From NCBI GenBank assembly GCA_001777665.1, contig MFEQ01000004.1, forward strand, positions 10-64,009: 64,000 nucleotides of DNA, given 5' to 3'. Positions 1 through 11,078 of this stretch are shown here, piece after piece (position 1 is the first letter of the stretch; each line of letters begins with the position of its first letter). The translations under genes were made by a program, and so were the position numbers. The DNA is from Candidatus Doudnabacteria bacterium RIFCSPHIGHO2_02_FULL_42_25 (lineage in GTDB: Bacteria; Patescibacteriota; Doudnabacteria; UBA920; O2-02-FULL-48-8). The notes under the pieces are model-generated. The model made no database searches. It saw only the letters and a list, made by a program, of their open reading frames with translations, and had not been told where the DNA came from.

Positions 1-96
1 CACACAAAATTAAATGGACTAACTCCAGTCGAGAAGTTAGCCCAAAGTGTCATCATTGACTGTTAACTCTACATGGCTGTGTAATGCGAATTATCA

Positions 97-507
97 CTAT
101 TTTTGACCAATTCGTTCTATAAGGACCTCAAGGGATTTTCTAGTATTCTCTGTTAAATTTAATTCGAGGACTTTAGTAAGTGGGATCCAGTCAAAATCCT
201 CACCTTCATTTAAGACCATTTCGCTTTTTTTCAATTCACTCTCGATGACAAAAATATAGCTTTGTCTTTGAAATTTTTCGTTAAAATAGCTCCGTAAGGG
301 TTCTATCTTTCCAGGATCAATCTCTATACTCAACTCTTCTTTCAACTCCCGGACTAAACATTGTTCTGGTGTCTCATTATTTTCGCTTGATCCACCAAAA
401 AAACTCCACAATCCAGGATTGAACTCTGCCTTCATATCGCGTTTTTGTAGCAAGACACTTTTGGTTTTTGGATTGTATAAAAACCCTCCCACAAAAAATC
501 CATCCAT
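97..507 (-). CDS. NUDIX hydrolase
   Basis: Nudix box GGSSENNETPEQCLVRELKEELSIE (GX5EX7REUXEE); 136 aa; last gene of a co-directional operon. Confidence 0.6.
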   Translation of the reverse strand: MDGFFVGGFLYNPKTKSVLLQKRDMKAEFNPGLWSFFGGSSENNETPEQCLVRELKEELSIEIDPGKIEPLRSYFNEKFQRQSYIFVIESELKKSEMVLNEGEDFDWIPLTKVLELNLTENTRKSLEVLIERIGQK

Positions 508-600
508 TATTGTTATCTACTGCTAATTATTAAATGCCGTGGTATTAAACAAACGTCAACTTGGCAAAGCAAGCGGTTCGTGCTGTAATGTGACTTAAAT

Positions 601-1368
601 TTATTTAAATAAATCAGTTAGTTCGTATACCATTCTCAATGATGTTGCATATGCAATACTCAAGGGTGTCCGTAGTGACCCTTTTTGCGTTCTCCCTGTT
701 TTATCATCAACGACATATGCTACATTATCAGCTCCCCAATTCATATTTCCATTAATTATACCAATGACTTTGTTACTATATTTACGAAAAAGAGGAGCAC
801 CGCTGTTCCCTCCTAAACTTATACTATTAATTTGTATGTGTTGATATCTTTCTCCGACCACCTCTGTATTTGGAAAACTTGAAACAATCCCTGTGTTAAT
901 TGCAAACGGAGTCTCCCTATTATCATAAGGAGGCGAAATAGGAAAACCGGCAAAAAATACATGATCATCATAATTAATTTCTGCGTTAAAATCTAAATCA
1001 AAATATTTTATATCTTTTCCAAAATTTTCATCACTCAATTTTAGTAGAACAATATCAAATTTATGATTATGTTTCTTAAGTTTTAAACTAGCAGTAGTTT
1101 TATCCGGAAATTCTATTATTACACTTTTTACCGATTGCGCGAACCATTTGTCAAGTTTTTCATGTTCATTTAGACCAATTATTTGCTGATACTCGCTAGT
1201 GTTTTTTAATTTCGAAAACCCTTGTCCAAAAGCCACATGAAAACAAGTTAAAAAATGGCCTTTATCATTAATAAAAAATCCGGAGCCAGTACTCCATCCA
1301 TTATTAGTATAATTTATTGTTACTCGAAGTATTCTATCTTTTTTAAACGGGACATTGTTGCTAAACAT
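601..1368 (-). CDS. Trypsin-like (S1 family) serine protease, cytoplasmic (no signal peptide)
   Basis: His motif TCFHVA, Asp in DIVLLKL, Ser motif GGNSGAPLF; 19-bp gap to upstream gene. Confidence 0.6.
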   Translation of the reverse strand: MFSNNVPFKKDRILRVTINYTNNGWSTGSGFFINDKGHFLTCFHVAFGQGFSKLKNTSEYQQIIGLNEHEKLDKWFAQSVKSVIIEFPDKTTASLKLKKHNHKFDIVLLKLSDENFGKDIKYFDLDFNAEINYDDHVFFAGFPISPPYDNRETPFAINTGIVSSFPNTEVVGERYQHIQINSISLGGNSGAPLFRKYSNKVIGIINGNMNWGADNVAYVVDDKTGRTQKGSLRTPLSIAYATSLRMVYELTDLFK

Positions 1369-1386
1369 ATATATAAGGCAATAATA

Positions 1387-2478
1387 TTATTTTCCGGATT
1401 TAGTTCGATTGTCTAATTTACATAACATCTGGCAGTTTTGTGCAATTGTCTTACCACCTTCGTGCCAAGGAGTGATATGATCCGCTTCCATTTCTTCGAT
1501 ATCATAATGCTTCTTGCATTTTGGACAAATTTCATCTTGCCGCTCATAAGCCTCGCGCTTCATTTTGTCAGTAAAGGCCCGGATATTAAGATATTTTTCT
1601 TGTCTTGTAAGCACGTAGGGATATATGCCGGATTTTTTCGTCACATCTTCATCTTGCATGAGATTCTTGATTTCAACTTCTAGCTTTTTTGGATCAAGTT
1701 TCTTATCTTTGAATTCATTATACAACTCGCCCCAATTCACCACCGCCATCTCGTTTCGATAATTCGGAAACGTTTTTCGCACCCACGCAACCACGTCTTG
1801 AAAATATCCCCACAGTTCGTCAGCATTTTTATCTTTCTGATGATTCGCCATATAATCCGCGATCTCGCCGTTGTTTATCCACGAAAGTGCTGTTTCCAAA
1901 TACTCCTGTCGAATTGGCGTGCCGTTTACTAATTTTCCACCATCATTTGCCAAGCGATATGCTACGCAATTTGATTTACTAAATTTCATTTTTGCGTCGC
2001 TTAACCATGGACCAGTGTAAACAGCATTACGGATTTCCTGATCATTCACCTTCTCGCCATAAGTATTAATAATAGTGAACCAGTCTATTCGCTCCTTATC
2101 AGTCCCTTCGCAAAAATAAACCATAAGTTCGTAATCCAAAATCTCGTCCTGTTCCTCTTTGGTTAAATTATGGAAAAAACGATCGTTCAGAGAAAAATCA
2201 CCCGTAACATATTGTCCGATACTAATGGTGCGCTGTTGACCATCTAACACTTCATATCCGCCGTCGTCCCTAATCATCCAGTACATCACATTTAGCGGGA
2301 AGCCGCTTTTGATAGTTTCGATCACTGCTTTGCTTTGTTCTGGCTTGTATACAAACTCACGCTGATATTTGGGCCGAATATCCAATTTGCCACCATAAGC
2401 AACCACGCCTTCTTCAGCGCTATCTTTATAACCCTTAACTATTTCACGAATTGCAATTTTATGCGGTTCAATTTTCAT
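1387..2478 (-). CDS. DUF262 (ParB-like nuclease, DGQQR motif) fused to C-terminal HNH endonuclease; GmrSD-like
   Basis: VLDGQQRTISI near N-term; C-term CPKCKK...DHITPWHEGG...NCQMLC HNH/zinc finger. Confidence 0.6.
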   Translation of the reverse strand: MKIEPHKIAIREIVKGYKDSAEEGVVAYGGKLDIRPKYQREFVYKPEQSKAVIETIKSGFPLNVMYWMIRDDGGYEVLDGQQRTISIGQYVTGDFSLNDRFFHNLTKEEQDEILDYELMVYFCEGTDKERIDWFTIINTYGEKVNDQEIRNAVYTGPWLSDAKMKFSKSNCVAYRLANDGGKLVNGTPIRQEYLETALSWINNGEIADYMANHQKDKNADELWGYFQDVVAWVRKTFPNYRNEMAVVNWGELYNEFKDKKLDPKKLEVEIKNLMQDEDVTKKSGIYPYVLTRQEKYLNIRAFTDKMKREAYERQDEICPKCKKHYDIEEMEADHITPWHEGGKTIAQNCQMLCKLDNRTKSGK

Positions 2479-2513
2479 ACTAATTTTCTTAATATTTAAA
2501 TGTAACTATTTTT

Positions 2514-3620
2514 TCACTTCTTATTTTTTATGATGATTCTCATATAAATAAACCTGAATCGATTTCCTTCTTTAACTATAGGACTACCATTTAAATCATT
2601 AAAATTATCACCGTCTTCTTTGGTATAGATCTTTATCTTTAAATTATACGGATCATTTCTATGCGTTAATCCAATTATCTCAAACTGTTCGGGGCTATAT
2701 TTATTCAAAAAAGTGATCGGCACACCTATTGCGCCATAATAATCCGTAGGGATATCGGAAACTTTCGAAACCTCTATTGCATCGTAATTATCGTATTTTG
2801 GAAATTCTTCTGAGGTGTATTTTTTATAAAGATCAAGCTTTTCATGTCGTTTCTCCGTATCAAGGTTTGTGTACCAATTGACAGCTGGGACTTTTACATA
2901 TCCATCATTTGGATTATATCCTTTCCCTTTAACAAACTGCTTGTTGGCTTCAAGGTTGTTGTTATAAGGTGTCTTATATACCATTGACATATTAAAACCG
3001 TAACCAGACCACAATTTATTTTGTTTTATTAATCCGAAAACATCTTTATACGTAATAGCGTTCATGTTCCCTAAAATCAAAAACTTTTTATCGTGTTCAA
3101 CAAGCTGAGCTAGGTATTCACGAAAAAGAGAAAATGGTGGATTAGTGACGACGATGTCGGCTTCTTTGAGTAGTTCGATACATTCAGCGCTTCGGAAATC
3201 ACCAGAGCCTTTTAGCGGAGTGGCAACATTAGCATCGTTTTTAAGCAACCATTCTACATCAGATAAACCAACGGAACCGTCGGCGTCTGCATCTGGGACT
3301 TTATTTATTTCTATCTTTAATGGCTGTTTGCCTTTTGATCCAGCCACTTGGAGCAACGGCAACTGACCGCCAACAATTGGCGAACCGCTATAACTCGTGG
3401 TAATGAGCTTCTTGAGCTTTAATTCGTTGAATTTAGAAGCGAAATATTTAAAAAAATTGCTTTCAAATGGATCATCGCAATTACAATATACAACTTTGCC
3501 GCGAAATTGATCTTTGTAGTGCTTCAGCTCTTTTTCAATATCAACTAACTGAGTATAAAACTCATCTTTTTTGGCCTGGCTTGCCTTATGTAAATTTTTA
3601 TTTGATGATTTTTTTTCCAT
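2514..3620 (-). CDS. N6-adenine methyltransferase (gamma-class-like), probably DNA
   Basis: N-terminal DEFYTQ (FxTP-like motif X) and catalytic IVVTNPPFS (motif IV); starts 10 bp after secA stop. Confidence 0.55.
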   Translation of the reverse strand: MEKKSSNKNLHKASQAKKDEFYTQLVDIEKELKHYKDQFRGKVVYCNCDDPFESNFFKYFASKFNELKLKKLITTSYSGSPIVGGQLPLLQVAGSKGKQPLKIEINKVPDADADGSVGLSDVEWLLKNDANVATPLKGSGDFRSAECIELLKEADIVVTNPPFSLFREYLAQLVEHDKKFLILGNMNAITYKDVFGLIKQNKLWSGYGFNMSMVYKTPYNNNLEANKQFVKGKGYNPNDGYVKVPAVNWYTNLDTEKRHEKLDLYKKYTSEEFPKYDNYDAIEVSKVSDIPTDYYGAIGVPITFLNKYSPEQFEIIGLTHRNDPYNLKIKIYTKEDGDNFNDLNGSPIVKEGNRFRFIYMRIIIKNKK

Positions 3621-3629
3621 AAATGCAAA

Positions 3630-6248
3630 TCAAACACCACCTTGCTTCTTGACAAGATTATTTTTATGCTCTTCAGTATTCAATAGCCCGCATTTCTTCC
3701 ATTTTTTACCACTACCGCAGGGGCAGGGGTCGTTGCGGCCGATTTCTGATCCTTGATCATTGTTACGTGTTACGGGGCTTACAGGCTGAGGAGTGACGTC
3801 GACTCGGAAAATTGTGTACGCGACTTGTCGATTTATTTCATCGAGTAATCTGCCAAATATTTCAAACCCTTCGTTTTTGAATTCGTGTAGTGGATCGCGT
3901 TGGCCGTATCCTCGGAGTCTCACTGAATCACGTAAATGCTCCATGGTGTCCAGATGTTCTTGCCAGAGGACATCGATGGCTCTGAGATAAACCACTCGCT
4001 CTAACTGACGCATCACTGGTGCTCCTAGTTTTTGCTCTTTCTTCTCGTACTCTCGCATCGCGAGATTGACGAAGTGTTGAGTCAGAACTTCCTGATCCAG
4101 GGATTTATTTTCATCCACATCGTGTTGCAGTGGGACTATGGTTCCGATTTCATGAAAAATCTTGTGGGAATCAACTTGTTCTTGGGCTAAACCAAAGTTT
4201 ACTATGTTCGTAATTTCTTTTACTAACATATCTTTAATTTGAGCACTTAGATCGGTTTGGGGATCGAGAGATTGTTTACGCTTACCATAAATAACCGTGC
4301 GCTGTTTATTCATGACATCGTCATATTCCAACACATGTTTTCTCATGTCGAAGTTTAACCCTTCAATCTTTTTCTGCGCTGATTCGATGGATTTGGAAAT
4401 TAACGCAGCTTCAATTGGTTGATCTTCAGGAATACCCAAAGTCTCCATCATCTTCCCTACCCGATCTCCGCCGAACAATCTCATCAGATCATCTTCGAGG
4501 GACAAGAAAAATTGCGAAGAACCAGGATCGCCCTGTCGGCCAGAACGTCCTCGCAACTGATTGTCGATACGTCTGGATTCATGACGTTCAGTTCCGATAA
4601 CTGCAAGACCTCCTAATTCTTTCACACGAGCTTGTTCCTCCGGATCTGCCGGGTTTCCACCCAAAATAATGTCGACTCCTCGACCTGCAATGTTTGTAGC
4701 TAGGGTTACTGACCCCAAACGCCCTGCTTGAGCGATTATATGGGCTTCACGCTCGTTATTCTTCGCATTTAGGAGCTCATGAGGCACTCCGGCTTGCTTG
4801 AGCAATTGCGACAATAATTCGTTCTTTTCGATAGATATAGTACCAATCAGAATAGGTCGCCCAGTTGAGTGGATTTCCTTAATGGCGCGAACTAGGGCCG
4901 TGAATTTTCCTTTTACGTTTTTGTAAACTTGATCCGGCAAATCTTTTCTGATCATCGGTCGGTGTGTCGGGATCAATACTACTTCGAGGTTATAAATTTT
5001 ATGAAATTCTTCGGCTTCGGTTTCAGCAGTACCAGTCATACCGGCCAATTTTTTGTACAAACGGAAATAGTTCTGGAAAGTGATGGTAGCGAGAGTTTTA
5101 CTTTCTTGCTGAACTTTCACACCTTCTTTGGCTTCGATGGCTTGGTGCAAGCCTTCAGAATATCGACGGCCAAACATCAGACGCCCGGTAAATTCATCGA
5201 CTATAACTACTTCCCCTTCTCGAACGACGTAATTGATGTCTTTTTTAAATAAAGTTTTGGCACGGAGTGCGGCATCAGCTTGATGTCGAAGTTTAGGATC
5301 ATTATAAATCGCATCACCGTACTTTTTTTCTAATTTCACATTGCCTTTTTCAGAGAAAGCGACCTGCTTTTTCTTTTCATCTACAACGTAATCATCAGGG
5401 CTAAGTGAAGTAATGACTTTTGCAAACTCAGAATACATATCTGTCGAATCAGTATCAGGGGCGGAAATGATGAGCGGGGTTCTAGCTTCATCAATCAAAA
5501 TCGAGTCGACTTCGTCTACGATAGCATAGTGCAAATCTCGTTGTGACATTTGATTCGGATCCCAGACCATGTTGTCGCGCAAATAATCAAACCCATATTC
5601 GTTATTTGTGCCATAAGTGATATCAGAAGCATATGCTTGTCTTCGTGGCACTGGGCGCATATGTTTGACGTCCAGGACCAATCCTTGCACTCCGGCTTCA
5701 ATCTGTTTGATTTCTTCTTCTTCTGGTTTGAAAGTCGGGTCATAGATAAACGACTGCTCGTGTTGGATCGAAGCAACTGACATTCCCAAGTAGTGATAAA
5801 TCTGGCCCATCCAAGAAGCCTGCCATCTGGAGAGATAATCGTTAACTGTGACCAGATGCACTCCTCGGCCAGTTAGAGCGTTAAGGTATAGCGGAAGTGT
5901 AGCAACCAAAGTTTTTCCTTCTCCAGTTCTCATTTCAGCGATAGCGCCAGTGTGAAGCACCATGCCACCGATTAGCTGCACATCATAGTGGCGCTGACCA
6001 ATGGTTCGTTTTGATGCTTCTCTCACCGCTGCAAAAGCTTGAGGTAATAATTCTTCCAATTTGGCTTTTTGCTGATCTAAATCCAAACTCGCCAACTGTG
6101 CTTTCCATTTAACAGTTAGTGCTTTGAGATCGTCTTGTGATTTGGATTCAAATTCTTTTTCCAGGGAGTTGATTTCATCAACTTTTTTCTGGAGTCGTTT
6201 GACTACAGCCTGGTTCGAATCTGAAAATAAATTACTAAAAAATGCCAT
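3630..6248 (-). CDS. secA: Preprotein translocase ATPase SecA
   Basis: 872 aa; DEAD-like motor, C-terminal CPCGSGKKWKKC zinc-binding tail. Confidence 0.95.
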   Translation of the reverse strand: MAFFSNLFSDSNQAVVKRLQKKVDEINSLEKEFESKSQDDLKALTVKWKAQLASLDLDQQKAKLEELLPQAFAAVREASKRTIGQRHYDVQLIGGMVLHTGAIAEMRTGEGKTLVATLPLYLNALTGRGVHLVTVNDYLSRWQASWMGQIYHYLGMSVASIQHEQSFIYDPTFKPEEEEIKQIEAGVQGLVLDVKHMRPVPRRQAYASDITYGTNNEYGFDYLRDNMVWDPNQMSQRDLHYAIVDEVDSILIDEARTPLIISAPDTDSTDMYSEFAKVITSLSPDDYVVDEKKKQVAFSEKGNVKLEKKYGDAIYNDPKLRHQADAALRAKTLFKKDINYVVREGEVVIVDEFTGRLMFGRRYSEGLHQAIEAKEGVKVQQESKTLATITFQNYFRLYKKLAGMTGTAETEAEEFHKIYNLEVVLIPTHRPMIRKDLPDQVYKNVKGKFTALVRAIKEIHSTGRPILIGTISIEKNELLSQLLKQAGVPHELLNAKNNEREAHIIAQAGRLGSVTLATNIAGRGVDIILGGNPADPEEQARVKELGGLAVIGTERHESRRIDNQLRGRSGRQGDPGSSQFFLSLEDDLMRLFGGDRVGKMMETLGIPEDQPIEAALISKSIESAQKKIEGLNFDMRKHVLEYDDVMNKQRTVIYGKRKQSLDPQTDLSAQIKDMLVKEITNIVNFGLAQEQVDSHKIFHEIGTIVPLQHDVDENKSLDQEVLTQHFVNLAMREYEKKEQKLGAPVMRQLERVVYLRAIDVLWQEHLDTMEHLRDSVRLRGYGQRDPLHEFKNEGFEIFGRLLDEINRQVAYTIFRVDVTPQPVSPVTRNNDQGSEIGRNDPCPCGSGKKWKKCGLLNTEEHKNNLVKKQGGV

Positions 6249-6255
6249 ATAATCC

Positions 6256-6292
6256 GGCTACGAACTTACGAATAAATACGAAAGTACGAAAA
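6256..6292. repeat. TACGAA direct-repeat array (left arm), inverted relative to 6689-6726
   Basis: cTACGAAcTTACGAAtaaaTACGAAagTACGAAaat. Confidence 0.55.
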
Positions 6293-6688
6293 TTAGTTAA
6301 TATTTAATATTCTACGAAATTTCACACCCTCTCTTGTAAAATTTGCTAAGATACCAAGCTTCAAATCGTTTGCTTTAAGATATGCCACCACTTGCTCGAT
6401 ATTTTTCTTTGAAAAGGGCTTATCTTTCTTAATTTCAATTGCTATCTTGGATTCGACAACAAAATCTATATAATATCTACCGATTGATTCACCTTTGTAC
6501 GTTAATGGAACAAATGCTTGTTCTTGAAACTTTATTTTTCTTTTGGCAAATTCTAAAGCCACCGACTTTTGATAATATTTCTCTTGGTAGCCACTCCCTA
6601 GTTCTCTGAACACTTCGATCAAAACTCCGACGATCGCATAACTTAGCTCTGGATACACAAGATCTTGTCTACGAAGACCCGTCTGCAT
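6293..6688 (-). CDS. GxxExxY family protein (PD-(D/E)XK nuclease fold)
   Basis: 131 aa; invariant GxxExxY region (ELGSGYQEKYY), EIK nuclease-like core; flanked by inverted TACGAA repeat arrays. Confidence 0.55.
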   Translation of the reverse strand: MQTGLRRQDLVYPELSYAIVGVLIEVFRELGSGYQEKYYQKSVALEFAKRKIKFQEQAFVPLTYKGESIGRYYIDFVVESKIAIEIKKDKPFSKKNIEQVVAYLKANDLKLGILANFTREGVKFRRILNIN

Positions 6689-6726
6689 TTTTTCGTATTT
6701 TCGTAATATTTAGTACTTTCGTAGCC
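6689..6726. repeat. TACGAA repeat array (right arm, inverted)
   Basis: ttttcgtattttcgtaatatttagtactttcgtagcc. Confidence 0.55.
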
Positions 6727-6808
6727 GTCCTATTATACAAAAACCCGGGCAAAAAGAAAAGGCCGAACTTCTGTGCGTCCGACCACGTGATTGCCTTCCA
6801 CGGACCGA

Positions 6809-7057
6809 TCATCCTTCGAGGAGTTCCAGCTTCTGGTTAGCATCCGTGAGCTTTTGCTGGAGATCACCAGCAAACCTCCGAAGAGAACCAGCGACCAGGG
6901 CCATGTCAGGGATTTCCTTGTTGATCTCGTTGTACGCCACTATCAAGCCATTGTCGGCAAGATAGCGTGAGAGCTCGACTCTCTTGTTTTCGGTAAGCTT
7001 TTCGCTCATATCCTCCTCCACGAGGATCAATATATGCTGTCTCTGACTTATTGTCAA
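6809..7057 (-). CDS. Hypothetical small protein (GC-rich island)
   Basis: 82 aa ORF; locally much higher GC than neighbours; palindromic motif 30 bp upstream. Confidence 0.3.
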   Translation of the reverse strand: MTISQRQHILILVEEDMSEKLTENKRVELSRYLADNGLIVAYNEINKEIPDMALVAGSLRRFAGDLQQKLTDANQKLELLEG

Positions 7058-7786: not shown

Positions 7787-9133
7787 CTAAGTATTCAAAT
7801 ATCCCCACGACTGGAGAAGGTCGGATTCGTTGAGCCAGCGCTCCCCGATGTCGACGCGATAAAACATGTTTTGTAAACGAATATTTTTTATACGATTGTA
7901 TGCTTGCCTTCGAGCGTCTTCAACTGTGGTGCCAGTGCCGGTAACTACCAATGCATACCCAGAAACTCCGGCTAACTGCAAAGTATTGTCCACCATTTTC
8001 AAATCCCCGATGTGTATACCATCAAGATTTGGATTTGGTCGACGGAAAAGTATCGATAAATCTTTATATGTCGAAATATCATCTGGGTCATCGGAAAGAT
8101 ACGAAGATACGGCACAACAAATGCCGAGTTGGAATCCTTTTTTGGTTGGAATCTCAAATTTTTCTCCACTTGCCAGTCGGTATAGAAATTCTCCAAACGG
8201 TAATTCCATACCAGTTGTTTGGACACTCGCTGTCGGATATCCAAATCGCGAAGTAAATTCCAGTGGATAAATTCCACGGGCATTCACGATACAATTAATA
8301 TCAAAATACCCGACATAATTGGCTTTAGCCAAATCAGTAACCATTTTATCGAGAGTCGCTTTAAACATAGCATTTGGTTGACTCCAAAACATCAGTGAAC
8401 CCATGTCCCCTGTCAGGGGCCCTATGTCTCCTGGAAATAATCGTTTAAATTCAAAATTGACATTGATCGGGTACAAAAACTCTTTGCCATTAAAATATCC
8501 ACCGACAGCGATCTCGACACCAGCAGCATAACGCTGGAGTTGAAAAGTTTTGATTTTACTTTTCCAGGCTTTTTTATTTGAAATCAAAAGTTCCAAAATA
8601 TCTCGGCCATCATCTTCTTCCCCGATAAACAACAAATCTTTATGATTTTGAGCGTGCCCGCTAGGTTTGAAAACATAACGGCTTGGGTTTTTTTGGATAA
8701 ACTCAATGGCTGCATCAAAATTCGTAAAATACCAATGCGGCAGAACATTCATACCAACTCGTTTCATTTCTGTCTGCCCAAATTCTCGGTTGTCTTCCAG
8801 ACTGTCTGTATATTTGCTTCCGCCAACCACGAGCTTACCTTTTTTACGCAAAGCATCAGCTAATTTACCAAACCCGACGTCATCAAAAACGATGATATCA
8901 GCCCAGTCGACATGATCTTCCCATTTTTTTACTTTATCTAAAATACCATCGTAAACGTCGACATCAGCTTCTCGTTCGATGTAAGCTTTTACTTCATGAC
9001 CTTCTTTTTGAACTTTCCAAGCAATATCGCCTGACAAGCTCTCAAAAGATACAAAAAGAAATTTTCGTGATGGTTTAGTTGGCAAAACAGCTTCTACGCT
9101 GGTCGTACTGCCATTACCGTTAGTGGTTCCCAT
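7787..9133 (-). CDS. ATP-grasp protein, phosphoribosylamine--glycine ligase (PurD) family
   Basis: C-terminal AYNRIKNIRLQNMFYRVDIG resembles PurD signature AYxxxxxIxFxGxxYRxDIG; N-term DIAWKVQKEGHEV like PurD ALAWKL. Confidence 0.5.
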   Translation of the reverse strand: MGTTNGNGSTTSVEAVLPTKPSRKFLFVSFESLSGDIAWKVQKEGHEVKAYIEREADVDVYDGILDKVKKWEDHVDWADIIVFDDVGFGKLADALRKKGKLVVGGSKYTDSLEDNREFGQTEMKRVGMNVLPHWYFTNFDAAIEFIQKNPSRYVFKPSGHAQNHKDLLFIGEEDDGRDILELLISNKKAWKSKIKTFQLQRYAAGVEIAVGGYFNGKEFLYPINVNFEFKRLFPGDIGPLTGDMGSLMFWSQPNAMFKATLDKMVTDLAKANYVGYFDINCIVNARGIYPLEFTSRFGYPTASVQTTGMELPFGEFLYRLASGEKFEIPTKKGFQLGICCAVSSYLSDDPDDISTYKDLSILFRRPNPNLDGIHIGDLKMVDNTLQLAGVSGYALVVTGTGTTVEDARRQAYNRIKNIRLQNMFYRVDIGERWLNESDLLQSWGYLNT

Positions 9134-9707: not shown

Positions 9708-11078
9708 CTACTTTACCATCTTTCTTGCGAGGTTGTCTATATCTCCTGCGCCCATCATTAATACTAAATCAAAATGTTTTATTTTTTCTTTGATCAATTT
9801 TTCTGTTTGAGACAAGTCTTTGGCATAAGTAGCCTTAGCTCCCTTTTTTGTTAACTCTTCTACCAACTGCTCCGAACTTATATCTTCACCGTGCTCTCTT
9901 CCAGTTACATCAAATATTTCTGGCAAGATTATTTCGTCAGCAGTGACTAATGCCTCGACAAAATCCCCAAATAGCGCTTTCGTTCGATTCCTGTGGTGTG
10001 GCTGAAAAACTACCAAAATCTTTTTATTTGGAAAGAATTCTCGAGCTGCTTGGATCGTTAGCTCCACTCCTGCTGGATGATGAGCGTAATCTGAAATGAC
10101 CGGTTTCAAATAATGATTACCGACTTCTTCAAACCTTCGCCATAGCCCATTAAATTCCGCTAGAGTTTGTTTAATCACGTCAAATTCTACCCCGAGCTTG
10201 ATCGCAGCTAGAATCGCGCCTAATGCATTGCTCATATTAAATATCCCTGGGACTTTGAGGACTATTTGACCAATCATTTCATCATCGTAGTGAAGATCAG
10301 CTATTTGTTCTCTATTGCCTATTTTGCAATTTACAGCCTGCAAATCAGCATAATGGTGGATACCAAATGTAAATTTGTGACAGGCCACGTGTTTGCATAC
10401 ATCCACTGTATTATGATCATCAGCGTTAAAAATCAAAATCCCTTCCGGTCCGATTGATTTAGCATATTCCAAAAATGCGGATTTGATATCTGACAAATCA
10501 TTGTAATAATCCAAATGATCTTCAGCGACATTAGTCACGATAATCATTTTGGGTTTGTTAAACAACATCTTGCGATGATATTCGTCAGATTCAACTACTA
10601 AATATTCACCTTTCCCATACCTAGCATTCGCCTGAAATTTATCCGATTCATTTTTGTGGGAAAGAGTAGAGCCTATTAACACTGTGGGGTCTAGATTCGC
10701 TCTTTCGAGGATTAGGCCCAATAAAGCCGTGGTTGTAGATTTGCCATTGGTTCCGGTCACCCCAATCCCATATTTCTCAACCATTAAATCGCCTAGAGCT
10801 TGAGCTTGGGAAATTTTCGGAGAGGTTATAAAATCCAAATCATCTTTCGGGATATCTTGAGAATAGATAACCAGATCTGGTTCAGGTGTAATTTTTGCGG
10901 GATTTGGACCTATGTCCACATCCATCCCCAAATCTTCCAGGGATTTGGTAATCACTGATTCTTTGATGTCTGAACCGGAAACATTTTTACCCATAGCAAA
11001 AAGAATTCTAGCTAGAGCTGAAACTCCAATTCCTCCAATTCCCAGACAATAAATATTTTTAGCTTGTTTGATATCCAT
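9708..11078 (-). CDS. murC: UDP-N-acetylmuramate--L-alanine ligase
   Basis: 456 aa; N-terminal GIGGIGVSALA Rossmann, Mur ligase central GTNGKSTT. Confidence 0.85.
   Translation of the reverse strand: MDIKQAKNIYCLGIGGIGVSALARILFAMGKNVSGSDIKESVITKSLEDLGMDVDIGPNPAKITPEPDLVIYSQDIPKDDLDFITSPKISQAQALGDLMVEKYGIGVTGTNGKSTTTALLGLILERANLDPTVLIGSTLSHKNESDKFQANARYGKGEYLVVESDEYHRKMLFNKPKMIIVTNVAEDHLDYYNDLSDIKSAFLEYAKSIGPEGILIFNADDHNTVDVCKHVACHKFTFGIHHYADLQAVNCKIGNREQIADLHYDDEMIGQIVLKVPGIFNMSNALGAILAAIKLGVEFDVIKQTLAEFNGLWRRFEEVGNHYLKPVISDYAHHPAGVELTIQAAREFFPNKKILVVFQPHHRNRTKALFGDFVEALVTADEIILPEIFDVTGREHGEDISSEQLVEELTKKGAKATYAKDLSQTEKLIKEKIKHFDLVLMMGAGDIDNLARKMVK

Follow-up and report, generated by a model that had tools for sequence, protein, structure and literature searches.

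The four genes directly downstream of secA in the Candidatus Doudnabacteria genome assembly GCA_001777665.1 (contig MFEQ01000004.1) were analyzed. They encode an N6-adenine methyltransferase (MTase), a nuclease with DUF262 and HNH domains, a trypsin-like protease, and a Nudix hydrolase. The window is the full 64-kb stretch of this contig, and all coordinates count from its first letter. The region is likely a mosaic of a two-gene restriction-modification (R-M) module, an unrelated accessory protease, a resident Nudix gene, and a bounding insertion sequence (IS) element. The MTase and the nuclease constitute a conserved, mobile, and very widespread two-gene module. Judged from its sequence, the pair is a new member of a type II-like R-M family that is recognized bioinformatically and for which no characterized member was found. 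The initial annotation had proposed a candidate defense operon of four genes. The defense label was retained for the MTase-nuclease pair, which is a defense-type module; the protease and the Nudix hydrolase are unrelated neighbors.

The four open reading frames (ORFs) are real genes and not chance ORFs, since identical proteins were predicted on 24 or more independently assembled contigs. The Pfam profile search gave EcoRI_methylase for the MTase, GmrSD_N and HNH for the nuclease, Trypsin_2 for the protease, and NUDIX for the Nudix protein, in agreement with the domains first assigned. The motifs described for them (NPPF, DGQQR, the H/D/S triad, and the lack of a signal peptide) were all visible in the translations.

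Pfam EcoRI_methylase (PF13651) matched the MTase at 5.6e-138 over positions 1-345 of the 345-position profile, and PADLOC MTase_II (PDLC03297) matched it over the full length at 1.2e-118. The NPPF motif lies in the sequence VVTNPPFSLF. The MTase showed 43.6% identity over the full length to the genuine M.EcoRI of an E. coli plasmid (NZ_OW967970), whose gene neighbors that of R.EcoRI (annotation: "type-2 restriction enzyme EcoRI"). This identity marks the MTase as a DNA enzyme. The alignment of related loci showed a hypervariable, indel-rich C-terminal segment in the MTase at residues 321-360.

In the nuclease, Pfam GmrSD_N matched residues 34-154 (3.1e-16) and Pfam HNH (PF01844) matched the C-terminus (8.8e-10), while the Pfam search gave no match to GmrSD_C/PF07510 (DUF1524). 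The GmrSD or type IV-like fold that had been suggested is therefore present in the N-terminal DUF262 and not in the C-terminus, which is a PF01844 HNH domain. PADLOC REase_II (PDLC03418) matched residues 1-363 on profile positions 1-372 (2.2e-131). With matches to both MTase_II and REase_II, a standard annotation tool would label the pair type II R-M, contrary to the statement that no named system has this composition. The N-terminal part carries the motifs PKYQREFVY and DGQQR (D79 to R83). The C-terminal motifs CxxC, DH, N, CxxxC, and NR correspond to an HNH domain with a zinc ribbon. Across 29 diverse homologues, the DUF262 motifs QR and DGQQR were invariant, and D333-H334, N348, N357, and the four zinc-ribbon cysteines were invariant or nearly so. 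In PADLOC, the DUF262 region is similar to Menshen NsnA (2e-27) and to PD-T4-2_A. DUF262 is a ParB-type NTPase module and by itself no reader of modified bases.

PDB sequence and profile searches with the nuclease returned generic HNH matches (4h9d at 2.8e-5, McrA, and Cas9) and a marginal match to BrxU (7p9k, E 0.16-0.24); no solved structure of any member of the nuclease family was found in these searches. AlphaFold2 modeling rested on 42 homologues, none of them below 80% identity, and gave a poor model (mean pLDDT 49) that was confident only in the HNH part, at about residues 300-360. The nuclease family is large. At least 8000 proteins were found at 1e-10 by a word-indexed search, and 489 clusters were obtained at 50% identity (E<=1e-30). 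The RefSeq name of the nuclease is still just "DUF262 domain-containing protein".

The distribution of the pair was investigated with one genome per species. Relatives of the nuclease with 59-83% identity were found at 80 loci of other species. These loci span many lineages of the Candidate Phyla Radiation (CPR), Omnitrophota, Elusimicrobiota, Poribacteria, Bacteroidota, Proteobacteria, a Methanobacterium, and a Pacearchaeote. In 74 of the 80 loci, the nuclease gene was preceded by an EcoRI-family MTase gene in the same orientation, and four of the six remaining loci have less than 260 bp of upstream sequence. The pairing of an MTase with a DUF262 nuclease, considered unusual at the outset, is thus common and the rule for this family, and it was also found on plasmids and in a phage. 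The junction between the two genes (M-R junction) in most loci is 1 nt (a conserved TAA-T-ATG) or a 4-nt overlap (ATGA). The pairwise identities of MTase and nuclease correlate across loci (r=0.60). One cluster representative, P0296 (688 aa), combines EcoRI_methylase, GmrSD_N, and HNH in a single protein; it is apparently a natural fusion of both genes, although it may be a gene-calling artefact. An HTH_3 gene of 70-74 aa lies 2 nt upstream of the MTase gene in loci L011 and L036 and was likened to type II controller proteins.

Plasmids with the pair were found in Chryseobacterium, Macrococcoides, Mammaliicoccus, Aeromonas, Sulfitobacter, Variovorax, Gordonia, Enterococcus, and Ligilactobacillus, covering Firmicutes, Actinobacteria, Proteobacteria, and Bacteroidota. 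On one plasmid of 7.5 kb, the annotated genes are only rep, a MerR regulator, M, and R. Flavobacterium phage laban6-1 also carries the pair. Cultured carriers include Ligilactobacillus agilis La3 (plasmid pLa3_1), Macrococcoides canis Epi0082 (pMiCAN82a), Sulfitobacter indolifex DSM 14862, and Moheibacter lacus. At other loci, the pair is flanked by genes for AbiEii, OLD, PifA, a KAP NTPase, and GmrSD. The flanking genes fell into 98 singleton families, so the pair has no conserved third gene. The same pair has been reported in Sulfitobacter indolifex, where GAATTC is unmethylated and a non-palindromic N6-methyladenine (m6A) motif, GGCATC, is present and assigned to no enzyme (PMC9025767).

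At about 22 loci, a co-directional cargo insert of 0.35-1.9 kb lies between the MTase and nuclease genes (L007, L012, L015, L018, L021, L026, L046, L047, L050, L051, L053, L054, L057, L058, L061-L063, L065-L067, L074, and L083). The cargo families are unrelated and comprise RhuM, Fic/DOC, Bro-N, DUF2130 with T5orf172, DUF6602, and a ThsB-like TIR; several inserts have no Pfam match. It seems that the tight M-R junction has repeatedly served as a slot for insertions.

The protease was matched by Pfam Trypsin_2 at 6.5e-16. The catalytic triad is visible in its translation as His (CFHVAFG), Asp (KFDIVLL), and Ser (GGNSGAP), and the protein has no hydrophobic N-terminus and hence no signal. No homologue of the protease was found within 8 kb of the pair in any of the 80 nuclease loci. 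The family has about 100 members of sporadic occurrence with 35-55% identity. The neighborhoods of six homologues were examined. In one, a serine recombinase, an N6_N4 methyltransferase, and a HEPN gene were present. Another (L088) contained a Shedu SduA_C gene and a recombinase, with a Trypco2 gene (6.5e-7) directly downstream of the protease gene. Of the remaining four, one contained a DUF2726 gene, one contained genes for CsgG and LpoB, one combined a second trypsin-like copy with a lambda Ea47-like gene, and one contained a phage integrase. Neither a Nudix gene nor the MTase-nuclease pair occurred beside the protease homologue in any of the six. In locus L183, whose protease homologue is 52% identical and among the closest, two trypsin-like genes (2952-3719 and 5160-5933) lie within 2.2 kb and adjoin the lambda Ea47-like gene and a dCMP deaminase gene.

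The window has 42 ORFs that are 200 aa or longer, and the protease gene ranks last among them both in GC content (0.318) and in GC content at third codon positions (GC3, 0.207); the adjacent nuclease gene has a GC of 0.400 and a GC3 of 0.401. A Trypsin-Trypco conflict module has been described in which a trypsin-like peptidase gene lies beside a Trypco-domain gene (Kaur et al. 2020, PMC7159879). No Trypco-type ORF was found in the 18- and 93-bp spaces that flank the protease gene of the window. The protease is an accessory gene outside the module, probably acquired separately, and its family is found with mobile and defense-type genes. At two loci, a serine protease gene from another family adjoins the module. 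In L013, an SDH/ClpP-like serine protease gene (5947-6864) lies 1 nt upstream of the MTase gene, and in L034, an S49 serine protease gene (4452-5291) lies 55 nt downstream of the nuclease gene. These two cases are probably coincidence within defense islands.

The Nudix protein was matched by Pfam NUDIX at 9.7e-19 and contains the Nudix box G-x5-E-x7-REUxEE; it scored below every NCBIfam equivalog cut-off. About 45 homologues with 50-78% identity were found, and the named ones all belong to CPR bacteria. In another Doudnabacteria genome, the homologue lies between ddl and pepP. The closest relatives adjoin metK-msrA-msrB, and others lie among HIT, MazG, and GNAT genes. All of these contexts are of a housekeeping type. 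No Nudix homologue occurred within 8 kb of the pair in the 80 nuclease loci, and none of the four Nudix contexts contained the MTase, the nuclease, or the protease. The Nudix gene is most likely a resident MutT-like housekeeping gene for nucleotide sanitation that does not belong to the module.

The features of the region are listed in Table 1. The ORF list contains five minus-strand ORFs within 97-6248 (secA and the four genes), all co-directional. The four genes follow secA on the minus strand as initially annotated. The intergenic gaps from secA to the Nudix gene are 9, 35, 18, and 93 bp, and the range is therefore 9-93 bp instead of the 10-94 bp first given.

Table 1. Positions of secA and of the features that follow it in the 64-kb window.
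Feature	Position	Strand	Length	Remark
secA	3630-6248	-	872 aa	
Predicted EcoRI-family N6-adenine DNA methyltransferase	2514-3620	-	368 aa	NPPF; putative modification half of the pair
M-R spacer	2479-2513	-	35 nt	From MTase stop to nuclease start; no inserted gene
Predicted DUF262 (ParB/Srx-like) and C-terminal HNH/zinc-ribbon endonuclease	1387-2478	-	363 aa	Putative restriction half of the pair
Stand-alone cytoplasmic trypsin-like (S1) serine protease	601-1368	-	255 aa	Adjacent accessory gene
Small MutT-like Nudix hydrolase	97-507	-	136 aa	
rve-type (DDE) transposase gene, 3' end	1-66	+		Convergent; translates to HTKLNGLTPVEKLAQSVIIDC and stop

The block after secA is accessory and not core, because all four genes are missing from the 80 loci of SecA relatives that were searched in a metagenome scan. 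These relatives are only 46-59% identical to SecA, and the comparison shows absence of the block, with no clean empty site in a close relative. In the other direction, no secA homologue was found within 8 kb of the nuclease gene in the 80 nuclease-bearing loci. Synteny with secA, named initially as a mark of core genes, was found in neither comparison. At the Nudix end, the block is bounded by a multi-copy IS element. All five contigs shown, from independent assemblies, end 77-163 bp past the Nudix gene and inside the transposase gene, as expected for a multi-copy IS element at the border. In L001, the transposase tail is longer (10412-10574) and was matched by Pfam rve_2 at 4.1e-5.

Three further observations concern this region. 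A hairpin with a 12-bp stem and a T-rich tail lies at 15-44 on the minus strand, just past the Nudix stop and within the coding end of the transposase gene; it is a possible terminator of the Nudix transcript. A gene of the GxxExxY/PDDEXK_3 nuclease superfamily (TIGR04256, 1.9e-31) lies at 6293-6688 on the minus strand, 44 bp upstream of secA, and is probably also accessory. The contig L003 of another strain (GCA_001777545.1) was considered to contain a nuclease pseudogene, and this was rejected: the gene is uncalled due to a 20-N scaffold gap at 8591-8610 and not to mutation.

The following mechanism is proposed. The R-M module would have been acquired horizontally and inserted 9 bp after secA in the Candidatus Doudnabacteria genome. 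The MTase is predicted to place m6A on host DNA at its recognition sequence. The nuclease would cut incoming unmarked DNA through its HNH site, and the methyl mark would block this cleavage. In GmrSD, BrxU, and SspE, DUF262 binds or hydrolyzes nucleotides and controls the nuclease, and these enzymes are NTP-stimulated or modification-sensing (PMC12707154, PMC12065111). By analogy, the DUF262 domain may gate or clamp the nuclease with a nucleotide. Since the MTase gene comes first and the two genes are translationally coupled in most relatives, the protective MTase should be produced before the nuclease or together with it. This arrangement would also allow the pair to act as an addiction cassette on plasmids. 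The protease would have been acquired separately and may be co-transcribed here, as no component of the module. Base composition was also considered as a sign of a single acquisition. It was indecisive, because the MTase and the nuclease themselves differ in GC (0.352 and 0.400).

Several results weigh against the interpretation as a conventional R-M module beside unrelated neighbors. The pairwise identities of nuclease and MTase were compared across 68 related loci. The mean pairwise identity was 73.8% for the nuclease and 60.6% for the MTase, and the nuclease was the more conserved protein in 96.6% of pairs. The nuclease is evenly conserved from end to end, including the middle region at residues 160-300, with almost no indels and no variable segment. 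The usual pattern in type II systems is the opposite, with the nuclease less conserved than the MTase. Two loci, L034 (2851-4396) and L076 (5964-8800), contain the nuclease gene without an MTase gene in the locus. No 4- or 6-bp palindrome was notably depleted in the 64-kb window; GAATTC occurred 36 times (34.6 expected) and AATT 699 times (651 expected). The literature searched contained no biochemical or genetic study of any member of the pair and gave no recognition sequence for it. In addition, the gap between the nuclease and protease genes is 18 bp without a predicted terminator, so co-transcription is possible, and the sequence is compatible with a local functional link. As a separate observation, an NYN-domain gene replaces the MTase gene upstream of the nuclease in L034 and L076, and L076 also contains a Bro-N gene.

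Three other explanations were weighed against the mosaic. In one, all four genes form a single new defense system, in which the MTase marks self, the nuclease attacks, and the protease and Nudix hydrolase serve as effectors or regulators. Their co-directional order, their close spacing (9, 35, 18, and 93 bp), and the lack of a convincing terminator between them are consistent with this, as are two weak PADLOC matches, one between the protease and PDC-M35A (3.7e-10) and one between the Nudix protein and PDC-S07, a single-gene Nudix candidate (2.8e-18). However, these scores are no better than those of the generic Trypsin_2 and NUDIX profiles. Homologues of the protease and the Nudix hydrolase were absent within 8 kb in all 80 pair loci, and the other three genes never accompanied the homologues in the six protease and four Nudix contexts. 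The GC3 of the protease (0.207) also differs sharply from that of the adjacent nuclease (0.401). The co-occurrence test has already largely refuted the single four-gene system claimed initially, and it is regarded as highly improbable. In a narrower proposal, the protease would cooperate with the R-M pair as a cargo effector in this lineage, like the genes inserted between M and R elsewhere. This proposal draws on the cargo genes of about 22 related loci, the other-family serine proteases that abut the module in L013 and L034, the HEPN, Shedu, and Trypco2 genes beside protease homologues, and the gap of just 18 bp to the nuclease gene. Yet the adjacency of protease and pair was seen in one species only, and the window contains no Trypco-type partner. 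Moreover, since the three protease families are unrelated, proteases at 3 of 81 loci are compatible with chance in defense islands. The chance that the protease is such a cargo effector is considered slim.

The remaining explanation accepts the pair and questions its classical mode of action. Here, DUF262 would serve as a sensor or clamp that depends on NTP, and the nuclease would read m6A as self or need the MTase for targeting. The invariance of QR and DGQQR and the resemblance to Menshen NsnA and PD-T4-2_A point in this direction, as does the NTP-stimulated or modification-sensing action of the DUF262 nucleases GmrSD, BrxU, and SspE (PMC12707154, PMC12065111). It would also suit a nuclease that is more, and more evenly, conserved than its MTase with the hypervariable C-terminal segment, and the S. 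indolifex genome, in which a homologous MTase is present without GAATTC methylation and with the GGCATC m6A motif (PMC9025767). Against it, REase_II matches the nuclease over its full length, and both the size of 363 aa and the coupled M-then-R order on very small plasmids are in keeping with a regular type II addiction cassette; the variability of the MTase may represent neutral loops. Such a non-classical mode is judged unlikely, although less so than a role of the protease as cargo. With a similarly low probability, the pair may form a restriction class of its own, in which the ParB-type domain gates the HNH nuclease and the methyl mark or the MTase sets the target or self, as phosphorothioate does for SspE. 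If the methyl mark or the MTase governs the targeting of the nuclease, its higher conservation relative to the MTase would be explained. In such a class, the tight M-R junction would also be a recurrent insertion slot for defense genes. The mosaic with a type II-like R-M pair is preferred over these explanations.

The module was compared with known systems. Like the type II R-M systems with HNH nucleases in PADLOC and DefenseFinder, it consists of adjacent M and R genes on the same strand, and both match the models over the full length. The occurrence of the pair on small plasmids, in the manner of classical addiction cassettes, and the occasional upstream HTH controller-like genes are further likenesses. 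In contrast, the nuclease here bears an N-terminal ParB/Srx-like DUF262 domain and is more conserved than the MTase. To our knowledge, a DUF262 domain is no feature of characterized HNH type II enzymes such as KpnI, Hpy99I, and PacI. Type I R-M (hsd) operons have defense-type genes embedded inside, and the cargo between modification and restriction genes at about 22 related loci is similar. However, the host module here is a two-gene, type II-like module and not hsdMSR, and the slot in the window is empty (35 nt). The MTase belongs to the same family (PF13651) as M.EcoRI of NZ_OW967970, to which it is 43.6% identical. The EcoRI system differs in that R.EcoRI is unrelated to the DUF262-HNH protein and in the gene order, which is R then M there and M then R here. 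A further difference is that S. indolifex carries a homologous pair without GAATTC methylation (PMC9025767).

The GmrSD and BrxU type IV enzymes share the N-terminal DUF262 with QR and DGQQR, a C-terminal His-Me finger, and the same domain order. The present nuclease differs in having a PF01844 HNH domain with a zinc ribbon instead of DUF1524 and in its size (363 aa, compared with 587 aa for BrxU). It is also nearly always accompanied by its own methyltransferase (74/80 loci), whereas type IV enzymes have none. The linkage of a DNA-modifying module to a DUF262 nuclease is an established arrangement in SspABCD-SspE (PMC12707154, PMC12065111). There, the modification is a phosphorothioate made by four proteins, whereas N6-methyladenine would be made by one MTase here, and SspE has a DUF262-DUF1524 architecture in place of the HNH nuclease domain found here.

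The results suggested that an exotic-looking four-gene operon resolves to a mobile R-M pair, an accessory protease, and a housekeeping Nudix gene beside an IS element. In uncultivated lineages such as CPR bacteria, Omnitrophota, and Elusimicrobiota, the pair ranks among the more abundant modules of an R-M-like kind, and plasmids of cultured bacteria carry it as well. If one pair from a cultured bacterium were characterized, thousands of genes could be annotated from it, and it would become clear whether the ParB-like NTPase domain serves modification-blocked as well as modification-dependent nucleases.

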